Sequence record: OR449013
DNA length: 64,000 nucleotides
Strand: one strand, 5' to 3'
Source of the DNA: Escherichia phage Mangalyan
Made by a program: the position numbers and the translations under genes. The notes under the pieces were generated by a model. That model had not been told where the DNA came from and did not search any database. It worked only from the letters and a program-made list of their open reading frames with translations. Positions 919 through 44,697 of this stretch are shown one piece after another (the first letter of the stretch is position 1; every line of letters starts with the position of its first letter).

Positions 919-1423
919 AGCTGCCTCCTCTTCAAGTTATAGAAAAACTCACTGTATCGCTTTGTAACGAGCTTTTCTATCAAACTGGTGCGATTGCATT
1001 ACCTGGTATAGTTTATATAGCTGTGGAGCGATTTAGGGGCCTTCTTGTCAGTTTCCACACATAAACTTCATCCAAGCTCGCGCGGGAGACTCTCAACCGA
1101 CTCCTTACGGCGCTGGCAAGCTTTCGTCGGTGGTCCACATCAGTGCTCGGCCTTTGGCCTGCGCTATAGCTTCGCTCCCACACATGTTAACAGACCTGCA
1201 TGTGTGCACTTCTGTTATTGTGTGCACCAAGGAGGCCCGGCATCTCGCCCCTCGTAGGCGAGTGCCAATGAAGGGCCGACACTGCCCATAGTAAGTAATA
1301 AATTTAAAACATGGTACTTAGGATCTAGTATATTCTACATAAGTTAAGTATATGTACTTAGTACCATAAGTACTAGATCTTTTATTTTTTTATTATTTAG
1401 TTATTTTAGTTATATTCTTTATG

Positions 1424-1532
1424 TGTCCGTATCACGGACAGTTAGTGTCCGTATTACGGGCAGATGTGTCCGCGTGACGGACAGTAGTGTCCGTATCACG
1501 GACAGTTAATAGTATCCGTTCCATGGCGAACA
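1424..1532. repeat. array of 17-bp palindromes TGTCCGTATCACGGACA (4 good copies plus 1 degenerate), 21-22 bp centre to centre
   Basis: read directly: copies at 1424-1440, 1446-1462, 1467-1483, 1488-1504, degenerate 1513-1532; each is a 7-bp inverted repeat around a 3-bp spacer. Confidence 0.85.
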
Positions 1533-3050: not shown

Positions 3051-3986
3051 ATGACAAATGAGGAACGTATAATGAAGTATTTTAATGCAGACGACCTAGT
3101 TGACAAAGGTCTTGTAACCAGTAGGTATTACCCAGATCTCGGGCTAAAGATCTATAAATATGCCAGAAAAGTATTCTACAACAATCTGTGGCATTTGTCT
3201 CCGCGTTTACTGGAGTGCCGAGGTATTGTTGTTGGCAATGAGGGGAATGTTGTGGCATGGCCTTTCACAAAAGTATTCAACTTAGGAGAAAACTCCACCA
3301 ACCTACCGGACAGTAAACTTGTTACTGCGGTAGAGAAAAAGAACGGATTCCTCGGTGTGGTATCATCTCATAAAGGTGACCTATTGTTCTCAACAACCGG
3401 GTCTCTTGATTCTCCATATTGTAACCTTGCAAAGGAAACCATCCAAGAGCAATGTGGTAATTTAGATCTTATCAAGAAGGTTATGGGCAATGAAAACATG
3501 ACATTCATGTTTGAAATTTGTCACCCTTCAGATCCGCATATTGTTCAAGAAGACCATGGCGCATATTTGATAGGTTGCAGATATAATGATTCTGGAATAA
3601 TGCTACCAGAAGCAGCTTTAGATGGGATTGCCAAATACCTTGGTGCAAAACGTCCTCACACTGTGCGTGAAATTCCGTTCAGCTATGCAAAAGAGTTAGC
3701 TGCAGAAACAAGAGGTGAAGGATATATGATTCGTAAGCCTTACTACCCTTATGATCTGCAGTTGAAGATCAAGTCTCCATACTATCTGGCACGAAAGGCC
3801 GTAATGAGGGGTAAAGCTTGGAAGATTTGGGATGATGATATCTTTAAACGTGTTGACGAAGAGTTTTACGGCATGGTAAACTTCATTCGTAACAACTACA
3901 CAGAGGATGTATGGAACTGCCTCCTGGAGCAGGAACGCCGTGAGATACTTGACTGCTATTTCCACAACGAGGACTATATGCAATGA
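3051..3986 (+). CDS. rnlA: RNA ligase, Rnl1 family (T4 gp63-like)
   Basis: nucleotidyltransferase motif I K-x-N-G (VEKKNGFLG, Lys about residue 96); blocks LECRGIV and KVFNLGEN match the N-terminal region of T4 RNA ligase 1 as I recall it. Confidence 0.8.
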   Translation: MTNEERIMKYFNADDLVDKGLVTSRYYPDLGLKIYKYARKVFYNNLWHLSPRLLECRGIVVGNEGNVVAWPFTKVFNLGENSTNLPDSKLVTAVEKKNGFLGVVSSHKGDLLFSTTGSLDSPYCNLAKETIQEQCGNLDLIKKVMGNENMTFMFEICHPSDPHIVQEDHGAYLIGCRYNDSGIMLPEAALDGIAKYLGAKRPHTVREIPFSYAKELAAETRGEGYMIRKPYYPYDLQLKIKSPYYLARKAVMRGKAWKIWDDDIFKRVDEEFYGMVNFIRNNYTEDVWNCLLEQERREILDCYFHNEDYMQ

Positions 3987-14415: not shown

Positions 14416-14836
14416 TGCAAAAGCTTTTGGTGAGACAGCGGTACAAAGAGGCCAGGCTATGGGACTGGCACTACCTTTCGTCTTAAAAGAGCACTTTACA
14501 GATTTTCAACTTATCAAGGGTGATAAGGGAATTCTTATCCTGGAGCATAAGTTGAGTAAGAAACGCTATAAAGTTGTTTTTAATTCTAAAGCTCCAACAA
14601 AACTGGGATTCAGAACTTACAATCTTAACCCATCCTACACTAAGGGTGTAGGAAGAGTAGAACAACAGCATTTCAGTGCTAGAGCTTCTTTAGCCCCCTT
14701 GATGCTAAATTTTTCAGGGGTGGCTTTAGGATACCTTGACAAGAAAAGAGTTCTTCATGTCCGTTTCACAGACTTTGTAACGCTTTTAGCTAACAATGAG
14801 GTAGATGAAAAGGGACGTGTAAAAACAAACTTCTAA
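14378..14836 (+). CDS. hypothetical protein (152 aa)
   Basis: ORF overlapping 3' end of methyltransferase gene. Confidence 0.45.
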   Translation: MIKSIDLTKELADAKAFGETAVQRGQAMGLALPFVLKEHFTDFQLIKGDKGILILEHKLSKKRYKVVFNSKAPTKLGFRTYNLNPSYTKGVGRVEQQHFSARASLAPLMLNFSGVALGYLDKKRVLHVRFTDFVTLLANNEVDEKGRVKTNF

Positions 14837-41757: not shown

Positions 41758-41966
41758 TAAACACACATGCATCTGAAGAGACATCCAAAGGAGTGACTAT
41801 ATGTCCCTTGGCTGAGCCAGTGAAAGAGGAAAACTTAGATTCTGAAGATTCTCCATCTTCGCTCCAGGTAGATCCTGAGGCTGATGACCTAACGTGGGAA
41901 GACATCGTAGACATCTGGTTCTCCATTATGCCTGAGCACGAAGAGTTCAGAGGTGGTAGACTATGA
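41754..41966 (+). CDS. hypothetical acidic protein (70 aa)
   Basis: ORF only; weak RBS. Confidence 0.3.
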   Translation: MINTHASEETSKGVTICPLAEPVKEENLDSEDSPSSLQVDPEADDLTWEDIVDIWFSIMPEHEEFRGGRL

Positions 41967-42458: not shown

Positions 42459-42654
42459 TAAGTTCTTCTCTTTTCTTTTACCGAGTAATTCGGGTTTTCT
42501 GTTCTCTTCGGTTTGAAGGGGTATGGAGATACACCTGAGTGAACAGGGTGAACAACCGAACCATTGGCTATGGCATTAGCATGGCGAAGCGGACGGGTGA
42601 CGAAAGAGGGGCCGGAGGACACCAGTCACTGCCATATGATATATGGGTGATAAC

Positions 42655-43193
42655 CTGAAGAGTCTGAATAAGTGTTTAAGTACCAGTCAGAGGAAAAGGT
42701 GAATGGTAGCCGAAGGGGGAGGGGGGTTACCTGCTTCTGTAAACATGCATCTGAAATACTACTTTAGATAACCTGAACCTGCCTTTCTGACAAATATTCC
42801 CTATTAAACTTGAATTATTTATAGAAAATACCACAACACCACTTAAGTCTTTGATTTTACACACAAATCTTACAGATATTAAACCTCTCTATTTAACATA
42901 CCTGTAACATATACTATACTCCACCTGTCTGATCAATTTCCCCAACTACATCCCCATATTTTCCCTGTCTGTACTACCCCTGCCCCGCCGGGAGTCCCGT
43001 CATATCTGGCTTTCCAGCAAATATCACACCCACAAATATCATCACCTGAAGAGGGTTTCATCCCATAATACATGCCTTACCTGAAGAGCGCTTCATACAC
43101 CACATAAATTTTTTAATTGACCCCCTCCCCGCCGCCGGAGAGGTTGGCTTTTCCCACACAGACCTGGAGAGTCAGCCAGAAATATCTGAAGAG
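42655..43193. repeat. four dispersed copies of about 15-bp motif CCTGAAGAG(G/C)G(T/C)TTCA
   Basis: CTGAAGAG at about 42655, 43046, 43081, 43186. Confidence 0.7.
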
Positions 43194-43750
43194 GGTCTAG
43201 TTCTGCCCTGTCATAAGCGGTAGCGACTGGAGTGCTGCTAGGCGGACGAAATGGGAATACTTCTCATTCTTATAACAATTCTCAAATATCGAGGCAGTGA
43301 GGCAAATTAATAGGTGAGGCCGTTCACACAGTGGCACAACATTTGCAACCTATCTTGTGGGATTGAATGAGAATACCTATCATTGTGAGAACTGTTATCA
43401 TTACGGGCAATTTAACATAATACCCATTATGCGCACCACTGGCGATACATACAGGGATTGATAACATGGGTTACTGTTTACGCACATAACAATTATATTT
43501 CTTACTATTTGTGTGGGATATAGTTAGCAGCCGATAGATTAGATATTAACCTGCAGACTTCTGACCGTCCAGACGTCTAAACGCCCACACACCAAGGATT
43601 ATACATACACTCCTGAATGTAAACAGGGCCGCAAAAATGCTACCATACAAGCTTGTAAATTTTTCATGCAGCACTTGACAAAGAGGAGAAAAACTTGTCT
43701 GACATAATGTGACCTAACTGACACAACATGACACTTTTACACACCTATTA

Positions 43751-43820
43751 GTTTACACACTGGATTGTTTACATTCCTGATTGTTCACATGCTAACCATT
43801 TACATGATTGACTGTTTACA
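43751..43820. repeat. iteron-like array: five copies of GTTTACA (variants GTTCACA, ATTTACA) at 15-16 bp spacing
   Basis: copies starting about 43751, 43767, 43783, 43798, 43814. Confidence 0.75.
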
Positions 43821-43833
43821 CACCGATAATCAG

Positions 43834-44083
43834 CCATGCCATTCGTTTGCATGACAATAATTATACATGACAATAATCGCACTGATCATAATTAGCATGA
43901 CATAATATAAAAGCAGGGCAACTATTAGCAGATCTATAGTTGCCTTGCTTGTTATGTCATGATTAACTAAATACAAGGCAACTATGATCTGATTAATAGT
44001 TTGCAGACAAACTATCACGGGGGTGATGGTTACTGCTTTTATATTATGTCGCGACTCCGTCGCGCCATGCCATTCGTTTGCAT
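43834..44083. repeat. direct 19-bp repeat CCATGCCATTCGTTTGCAT (two copies) flanking inverted repeats GGCAACTAT / ATAGTTGCC
   Basis: 19-mer at 43834-43852 and 44065-44083; palindrome arms at 43917-43925 / 43936-43944; second related palindrome about 43977-44005. Confidence 0.7.
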
Positions 44084-44697
44084 AGTTGCCTTATTGTTAC
44101 AGATAAAATAATTGTATTGTTAATTATTTCTTATCTTTCTATTAGTCATCTAATGATTTCAGTTAATATAGTAACGTACAGTAAACATTAGACGACTAAA
44201 GATTTCTATGCTTATGGTAACCTAACGTGACAATTCCAGACTGTTTACGAAAAATGTTGACACCTGGGCCGATTTATGTTATGCAGTTTACACGAATAAT
44301 TATTTTATGCAGGTATTGACTATTCCGTTATTCTATGGTTGGAATAAATGCTTAGCAGGCTATAGAATGGCGAGCGTACGTAAATTCTGAGATCTGGCGG
44401 CTATAGTTATACTCGATTTTTCACGTAGAAAACGCTTTTGTAGTTATGTAAGTGTATGACTTATAAAGTTGACAAGCTATTGAATATATGCATCAGGTTA
44501 AATTTTGTGCAAATGCTGCATTACGTGCAATTTTGGAAGGAAAAACGTGTAAAAATGGCCCTGCTACCACACAATGAAAAATTATGCAATAGTTATTTTA
44601 TATGTATGTTTGTACAGTGTGTGGGATTGATGGCTCGTCAATTATTCCACTTGCCAGGTAGGGCCGTTTATGGTAGGGGGAAGAGCAGACAAAAAGA

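Follow-up and report, generated by a model that had tools for sequence, protein, structure and literature searches.

A conserved array of four palindromes beside an AT-rich block as a candidate replication origin of rV5-like phages

The iterons of the bacteriophage lambda replication origin have internal dyad symmetry. This origin, ori-lambda, combines four iterons with an AT-rich tract; the O protein acts as dimers that form a compact complex, the O-some, and two of the iterons together with the AT tract suffice for unwinding (PMC7466680). Initiators of the RepA_N family use iterons that are semi-palindromic direct repeats (PMC7145576). A comparable layout is found in a 64,000-nucleotide (nt) stretch of DNA from Escherichia phage Mangalyan (sequence record OR449013; hereafter, the window), in which four tandem palindromes border an AT-rich block close to a gene for a 116-amino-acid (aa) protein with a predicted winged helix-turn-helix (wHTH) fold. 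The array is confirmed; it is non-random and conserved and is the only one of its kind in the genome. On balance, the evidence leans toward its being the initiator-binding (iteron) part of the replication origin of rV5-like phages, laid out like ori-lambda and served by a minimal initiator.

Positions 900 to 2000 of the window share 99.8% identity with records of rV5-like phages (genus Vequintavirus), such as the Escherichia coli phages isim, EmilHeitz, and rV5. The array (Table 1) sits in a 661-bp gap (919 to 1579) that has no annotated gene in most records and is bounded by two minus-strand open reading frames (ORFs), those of the 116-aa protein (1580 to 1930) and of a 192-aa protein (340 to 918), so that the array lies 3′ of the wHTH gene. 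Its only label in GenBank is “repeat_region” (in isim and in Alma, there from Tandem Repeats Finder with period 21 and 4 copies). These surroundings had been outlined correctly in a first-pass annotation made from the sequence alone, which placed the palindromes in an ORF-free region of ∼660 bp, beside an AT-rich stretch (1300 to 1420), and downstream of a small gene with a segment like a helix-turn-helix (HTH), the product of which is now predicted to be a winged-helix protein. The GC content at 1300 to 1450 is 22 to 27%.

The same annotation had listed four 17-bp palindromes starting at 1424, 1446, 1467, and 1488, and both direct reading of the sequence and a repeat search recovered them, the latter as a 22-nt unit in four copies. 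The start-to-start distances of 22, 21, and 21 bp correspond to 2.1, 2.0, and 2.0 helical turns. An inverted repeat with 7-bp arms and a 3-bp spacer had been described; the symmetry is there, but the comparison with relatives favors 6-bp arms around a 5-bp center, TGTCCG-N5-CGGACA. Within the window, a search for the 17-mer with up to 3 mismatches returned the four array sites and one weak match at 14758, against an average of 0.10 in window shuffles. For whole-genome counts, the near-identical complete genome of isim (138,289 bp, concatenated; window position 1424 is isim 97396) was used. In it, the relaxed palindrome T[GA][TC]CCG-N5-CGG[GA][CT]A has 4 occurrences, all in the array, and no over-representation of half-sites was found outside it. 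Thus, a high frequency of the motif across the genome, which the annotation had named as grounds for refutation, is not seen, and the presence of the palindrome at one locus in 138 kb suggests a single target, as for an initiator, rather than a regulon.

The intergenic region was aligned with those of rV5, SYGMH1, the divergent Aya clade, and six metagenomic contigs, whose 116-aa proteins are 87 to 99% identical to that of the window. The arms TGTCCG and CGGACA are nearly invariant in these relatives, the sole change being a G-to-C substitution in one metagenomic contig, and nearly all substitutions within the palindromes hit the central 5 nt. This combination of nearly invariant arms and variable centers would be consistent with a symmetric dimer that recognizes half-sites. 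Conservation is as high in the AT-rich block, and in the GC-rich part on its left side, as in the palindromes. A degenerate fifth copy had been reported at 1513, and the sequence is as described (TATCCGTTCCATGGCGA at 1513 to 1529, with the left arm matched at 5 of the 6 positions and the right arm at 3 of the 6), but this is the most variable stretch of the intergenic region and the copy is unrecognizable in rV5, SYGMH1, and the Aya clade. It was rejected as a fifth palindrome; the resemblance is most likely due to chance. Two independent metagenomic rV5-like contigs, L007 (end at 1839) and L012 (end at 3519), stop inside the array or 12 bp past it, probably because of coverage loss in a stretch of 80% AT; they may also mark a physical DNA end.

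Table 1. Features of the palindrome array and its surroundings (window coordinates)
Feature	Position	Strand	Sequence or composition	Remarks
Palindrome (iteron) 1	1424–1440		TGTCCGTATCACGGACA	Borders the AT-rich block; kept in all aligned relatives
Palindrome (iteron) 2	1446–1462		TGTCCGTATTACGGGCA	Right arm with one departure, CGGGCA
Palindrome (iteron) 3	1467–1483		TGTCCGCGTGACGGACA	
Palindrome (iteron) 4	1488–1504		TGTCCGTATCACGGACA	22-nt unit same as that of copy 1
AT-rich block, putative DNA-unwinding element	1289–1420		78–80% AT	Two GATC sites and a T/A run; starts 4 bp from iteron 1
Interleaved inverted repeats in the AT-rich block	1311–1321 / 1357–1367		ATGGTACTTAG / CTTAGTACCAT	
Second interleaved pair in the AT-rich block	1323–1331 / 1371–1379		GATCTAGTA / TACTAGATC	
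Two tandem 9-mers	1396–1413		TTTAGTTAT TTTAGTTAT	10 bp from iteron 1; conserved in relatives
Conserved GC-rich structured element	1037–1290		55–58% GC in a 43% GC genome	Flanks the AT-rich block
Helix A	1094–1101 / 1126–1133			Three fully compensatory pair changes, phage versus plasmid, in all five plasmid copies
Helix B	1239–1249 / 1257–1266			Two compensatory changes in the one plasmid retaining this helix
116-aa single winged-helix protein, candidate iteron-binding initiator	1580–1930	−		Fold and family matches
Sigma-70-like promoter of the wHTH gene	1965–1994	−	TTGACA-18-TATTTT, TG extension	Counterpart of P76 annotated in rV5

The block that adjoins the array is the most AT-rich 120-bp window of the entire isim genome (isim 97261 to 97390, window ∼1289 to 1418; 80% AT), and its tandem 9-mers are possible unwinding-element repeats. 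The combination of unique sites, tandem dyad repeats, the most easily melted segment of the genome, and a small wHTH protein from families annotated as initiators matches the anatomy of iteron-type origins. No DnaA box (TTATCCACA, with at most 1 mismatch) is present in positions 919 to 1579, and no intrinsic terminator was found around the array. Rfam searches over the whole window (gathering thresholds) and over positions 900 to 1620 (E ≤1) returned only rli43 (21 bits versus a gathering threshold of 100) and mir-154, neither of them credible. Enrichment of the block in GATC (Dam) sites was considered and is not supported in the window, with 2 sites versus a genome mean of 5 per kb; the AT-rich blocks of sister genera contain 3 to 5 such sites in about 30 to 120 bp. 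The global minimum of the cumulative GC skew of isim lies 1.5 kb to the right of the array, at the transcription divergence point; given this coincidence, the skew is compatible with an origin and is not counted as independent evidence. The authors of the rV5 genome sought the origin by skew and saw only transcription-linked switches, with the origin left unidentified and the repeats unmentioned (PMC3606486). Literature searches on the origin of rV5 or Vequintavirus found nothing relevant.

Judging from its sequence, the 116-aa protein is a genus-restricted orphan. It occurs in 118 phage records, all of them Vequintavirus, forms five 90%-identity clusters among 5.8 billion proteins, and has only eight representatives at E ≤1e-3 among 1.84 billion. 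In GenBank it is mostly named “putative transcriptional regulator,” also “DNA-binding protein,” and, in newer records, “replication initiation protein.” Over its full length, the protein matches PHROG 12838, “replication initiation protein” (5e-80), and, weakly, three more initiator PHROGs. Its Pfam scores fall just below the thresholds for DUF6945 (27.4 versus 28 bits) and HTH_36 (24.5 versus 25); the same search gave no match to Phage_rep_O (PF04492) or Rep_3 (PF01051), and no small-subunit terminase family was found in Pfam (E ≤1) or in PHROGs (E ≤0.01). The nearest solved structure is PDB entry 4ro3 (E = 3e-6, or 4.8e-11 with the family profile), a DUF6945 N-terminal domain of a Vibrio cholerae protein with no known function, which informs the fold and not the role. 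An AlphaFold model from a 5-sequence alignment was unusable, with a predicted local distance difference test (pLDDT) score of 45; the model adopted here, from a 38-sequence profile-search alignment (pLDDT 78), shows a confident single winged-helix domain with an N-terminal β-hairpin. The protein is accordingly predicted to be a small, dimer-type winged-helix DNA binder. In fold searches, initiator-type and regulator-type winged helices scored alike against this model, and MarR-like regulators share the fold, so the fold cannot separate an initiator from a repressor. Two longer wHTH relatives, P0009 and P0011 (194 to 217 aa), have an acidic C-terminal tail that ends in ...DEAPF or ...DPDAPF. 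The C-terminal tip of SSB is DDDIPF, which these tails resemble; this hints at a protein-recruitment tail that is absent from the 116-aa protein.

Binding, dimerization, unwinding, and origin firing are what we infer for this protein and its array. Dimers of the 116-aa protein would bind the four dyad-symmetric TGTCCG-N5-CGGACA sites, the spacing of 21 to 22 bp would put them on one face of the helix in a compact nucleoprotein complex, and this complex would destabilize the adjoining AT-rich block of ∼130 bp (1289 to 1420), where the phage's own primase/helicase and polymerase could enter the opened DNA. Given that the 116-aa protein is only a DNA-binding domain, helicase recruitment would need a partner or surface other than those in lambda O and plasmid Rep proteins.

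The same layout recurs outside the genus. Nine loci were compared, found through the syntenic phosphoesterase neighbor and, for remote relatives, with a family profile. At six of these (rV5-like phages, 4MG, Ro1, L020, L021, and L028), two to four repeats border the locally AT-richest block beside a small wHTH gene, and five of the six arrays are dyad-symmetric. Compared with the window (116 aa; 4 × TGTCCG-N5-CGGACA at 21 to 22 bp; 80% AT with 2 GATC), the Seunavirus 4MG encodes a 105-aa “replication initiation protein” and has 2 × AGCCTAnnCTCAAATTGA at 23 bp beside a block of 84% AT with three AAGATCT-like motifs. The Mydovirus Ro1, L021, and L028 encode proteins of 112 to 122 aa and carry 2 to 3 × ATTCC-N5/6-GGAAT at 23 to 24 bp (78 to 82% AT, 2 to 5 GATC), while L020, a 138-kb metagenomic phage, combines a 141-aa protein with 2 × TGTCCCC-N5-GGGGACA at 25 bp and 95% AT. 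Proteins that are 71 to 84% identical carry the common palindrome ATTCC-N5/6-GGAAT; the L020 protein, 57 to 64% identical to those, goes with a different palindrome (GTCCC-N7-GGGAC), and its recognition helix starts with NENSRTK versus SEKSQPK, which suggests that site and protein change together. The 4MG counterpart reaches only E = 0.042 against PF04492, Phage_rep_O. No clear palindrome array was seen, under the criterion used, at L029 or at L019 and L030, which encode proteins of 182 to 195 aa. What stays constant across the genera is the presence of repeats that border an AT-rich block beside a wHTH gene. The position relative to the promoter varies, the repeats of 4MG, Ro1, L020, L021, and L028 lying 39 to 116 bp upstream of the wHTH start codon, in the divergent promoter region. 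So does the placement of all sites on one face of the helix, which had been proposed from the spacing: it holds for this array (22/21/21 bp) but not for the other genera (23 to 25 bp).

An operator, a replication origin, and a partition or packaging site had all been suggested for the array, together with cooperative binding by a dimeric protein. The origin is favored by the uniqueness of the sites, their AT-richest neighbor, the similarity of the protein to families annotated as initiators, and the recurrent layout. The best-surviving alternative, although an unlikely one, is that the 116-aa protein is a transcriptional repressor and the array its bank of operators or roadblocks. As a roadblock, four cooperatively bound dimers would keep transcription of the wHTH/phosphoesterase operon from running on into the minus-strand genes downstream of it; as an operator, the array would regulate a promoter that points leftward from within the AT-rich block, where there is a −10-like hexamer, TAGAAT (1337 to 1332, minus strand). 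The regulator names in most GenBank records and the MarR-like fold agree with such a role. Several further observations favor it: in the sister genera, the repeats occupy the upstream position that is classic for autoregulation, perfect-looking TTGAC(T/A)-16-TAGAAT promoters are present in 4MG and Ro1 just past the AT-rich block, and PhagePromoter put a minus-strand promoter at window ∼1393 to 1400 in phage Gotham. However, the array of the window lies 3′ of the gene, and the wHTH promoter (1994 to 1965) contains no palindrome. In a consensus scan, no promoter overlapped the array and promoter-like sites were no commoner than in shuffles of positions 850 to 2100, and the TAGAAT hexamer is ∼90 bp from the closest palindrome and lacks a −35 element. 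The palindrome is missing from the remaining 138 kb, hence no regulon, and four sites against the AT-richest block of the genome make an atypical operator layout. Sites over its own or a target promoter, as in MarR-like autoregulatory operators, are thus not seen in the window and may be present in the sister genera. Plasmid Rep proteins serve both the origin and autoregulation, and by analogy the two roles could coexist here.

The non-coding region contains a second conserved feature, the GC-rich structured element, which outscores its shuffles in folding, with z about −3 for either strand, and belongs to no Rfam family. Its ends (1073 to 1140 and 1230 to 1283) are 84 to 87% identical to non-coding segments of circular E. 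coli “plasmids” of ∼13.2 to 13.7 kb; one further match is a 39.6-kb plasmid record with three copies. Neither of its two helices shows a disrupting change between phage and plasmids, and the close phage relatives have diverged too little for covariation, with no double changes. The five compensatory changes between phage and plasmids (Table 1) provide good support for a secondary structure that has been conserved, in either RNA or single-stranded DNA. A leader RNA, a priming signal, and a packaging signal are possibilities for this element. It leaves the function of the palindrome array undecided and reveals a second, independently constrained cis element in the same non-coding region. Part of the GC-rich element region (10% of the query, 85% identity) is also matched by CP057073.1, a 137.5-kb E. 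coli “plasmid” record that is probably an rV5-like phage genome.

The small plasmids (NZ_CP020521.1 [L024; 13,689 bp], NZ_CP035869.1, NZ_CP178698.1, CP148565.1, CP134895.1, and NZ_CP043822.1) are circular and non-mobilizable and encode major capsid, baseplate, tape measure, and HTH proteins; the best phage matches of their tape measure protein are Vequintavirus tape measures (25 to 26% identity). Another plasmid product is a 303-aa wHTH protein, which matches “replication initiation O-like” PHROGs weakly and for which no direct homology to the 116-aa protein was detectable. Despite the common GC-rich element, the plasmids have no rV5-like palindromes; they carry arrays of their own (CGGTAAATATTTACCG, 23-bp spacing, L024 13235 to 13343) in the 2.9-kb non-coding region that holds the shared element. 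A second short similarity between phage and plasmids is a 57-bp segment of the window (41773 to 41829) that is 82% identical to part of the gene for the 303-aa wHTH protein (“MarR family”; L024 10882 to 10938). With a cis-acting structured element in common with rV5-like phages, these plasmids are candidate plasmid-borne satellites that would have such phages as helpers; no description of them was found in the literature searched. A wider proposal seems rather improbable as a whole, namely, that iterons with a one-domain initiator, an unwinding element, and a GC-rich priming or loading signal make up a three-part origin module and that the ∼13-kb plasmids are unrecognized satellites tapping helper replication or packaging through that element.

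Satellites commonly share packaging signals with their helpers, and the presence of the adjacent GC-rich element in the capsid-encoding plasmids is one of the points in favor of a pac recognition region, in which the small winged-helix protein would act like a small terminase subunit or packaging specificity factor. In addition, Vequintavirus genomes are circularly permuted and packaged by the headful mechanism, with no mapped pac site (PMC8407724, PMC13211470), the small terminase gene is unannotated in isim, and the two metagenomic contigs mentioned above end inside or just after the array. However, the matches of the 116-aa protein are to initiator or HTH families rather than to small terminases, its model is one compact winged helix that lacks the oligomerization helices of those proteins, and the gene for the large terminase is ∼4.3 kb away, beyond the spanin genes, a small hypothetical gene, a tRNA cluster, and further small genes. 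The plasmids have the GC-rich element but not the palindromes, and coverage loss in the stretch of 80% AT accounts for the contig ends equally well. Packaging is regarded as a doubtful role for the array. A centromere-like partition site for a plasmid-like carrier state, for which the deposition of a probable rV5-like genome as the “plasmid” CP057073.1 and the prevalence of repeat arrays among centromeres could be cited, and a functionless tandem duplication are both very hard to credit, the former because these phages are lytic and no ParA/ParM-type gene is annotated or was found in the flanking genes examined, and the latter in view of the strict arms, the variable centers, and the analogous arrays in other genera.

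Several other features of the window and its relatives deserve mention. The plus- and minus-strand gene blocks converge on a 1.8-kb ORF-free region (42620 to 44456), which holds the exact 20-mer GCCATGCCATTCGTTTGCAT twice (43833 and 44064) and the palindromes AAGCAGGGCAACTAT/ATAGTTGCCTTGCTT (43911 to 43950), with related copies to 44099; it may represent a terminus, a pac region, or a second origin. The motif GCTCGTTACA(A/G)AGC(G/C)ATACAG, located at 939 to 1000 on the minus strand, just upstream of the ribosome-binding site of the next gene, is also found in the phi92-like phage PD06 of a different subfamily, Stephanstirmvirinae (L015 ∼975 to 1012), and may be a conserved leader or promoter element. 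Finally, 18 records named “Campylobacter phage” (MG065635.1, MG065653.1, and 16 others, with C12 and C14 among the names) are 98 to 99.8% identical here to E. coli rV5-like phages, which makes the host name on these records doubtful.

Vequintavirus and, more broadly, the Vequintavirinae are in wide use in collections for E. coli biocontrol and phage therapy, and no replication origin has so far been mapped in rV5-like phages. The locus described here is a precise candidate, consisting of ∼220 bp and one 116-aa protein, and the comparative rule (a small wHTH gene with palindromes of its own that border an AT-rich block) predicts an equivalent site in the sister genera. Should the 116-aa protein prove to initiate replication, it would do so with nothing more than a DNA-binding domain, which is unusually minimal for an initiator, and one may ask what recruits the phage helicase. 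The structured element ties rV5-like phages to small capsid-encoding plasmids, which would be of independent interest if they are satellites.

Among known systems, the iteron theta origins of plasmids (P1 oriR, pSC101, F, and R6K) resemble the locus in their direct repeats spaced by ∼22 bp, AT-rich unwinding element, and adjacent rep gene, and the upstream sites of the sister genera recall autoregulated plasmid rep genes. However, a Rep_3 protein contains a pair of winged-helix domains and contacts its iterons as a monomer, whereas the rV5-like model is a single winged helix and the palindromic nature of each repeat implies dimers; Rep_3 origins also have one or more DnaA boxes, which are absent from positions 919 to 1579. 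Similarly, the array consists of semi-palindromic direct repeats like those used by RepA_N initiators (staphylococcal pSK41/pTZ2162 and RepA of the Vibrio PLE), but the sequence similarity of the 116-aa protein to this family is not significant (E about 0.8), RepA_N proteins have a C-terminal host-interaction domain, and the poly-A center typical of their iterons is missing here. The lambda origin differs in lying inside the O gene rather than 3′ of the wHTH gene. The lambda O protein has 299 aa, a C-terminal domain that recruits P-DnaB, and membership in the Phage_rep_O family, versus 116 aa, one domain, and no PF04492 match in the rV5-like protein, and the rV5-like host of the array is a 137-kb lytic myovirus that, unlike lambda, has its own primase/helicase and polymerase. 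With one domain, no family hits, an origin outside the gene, and no DnaA box, the system is proposed to work like those of lambda O, Rep_3, and RepA_N and, in the tests made here, gave no sign of being one of them. By analogy, the closest known match would be ori-lambda, with which the array shares four dyad repeats of ∼17 to 19 bp placed about two helical turns apart, a directly flanking AT-rich tract, and a winged-helix protein as the initiator, established for lambda O and proposed here for the 116-aa protein.
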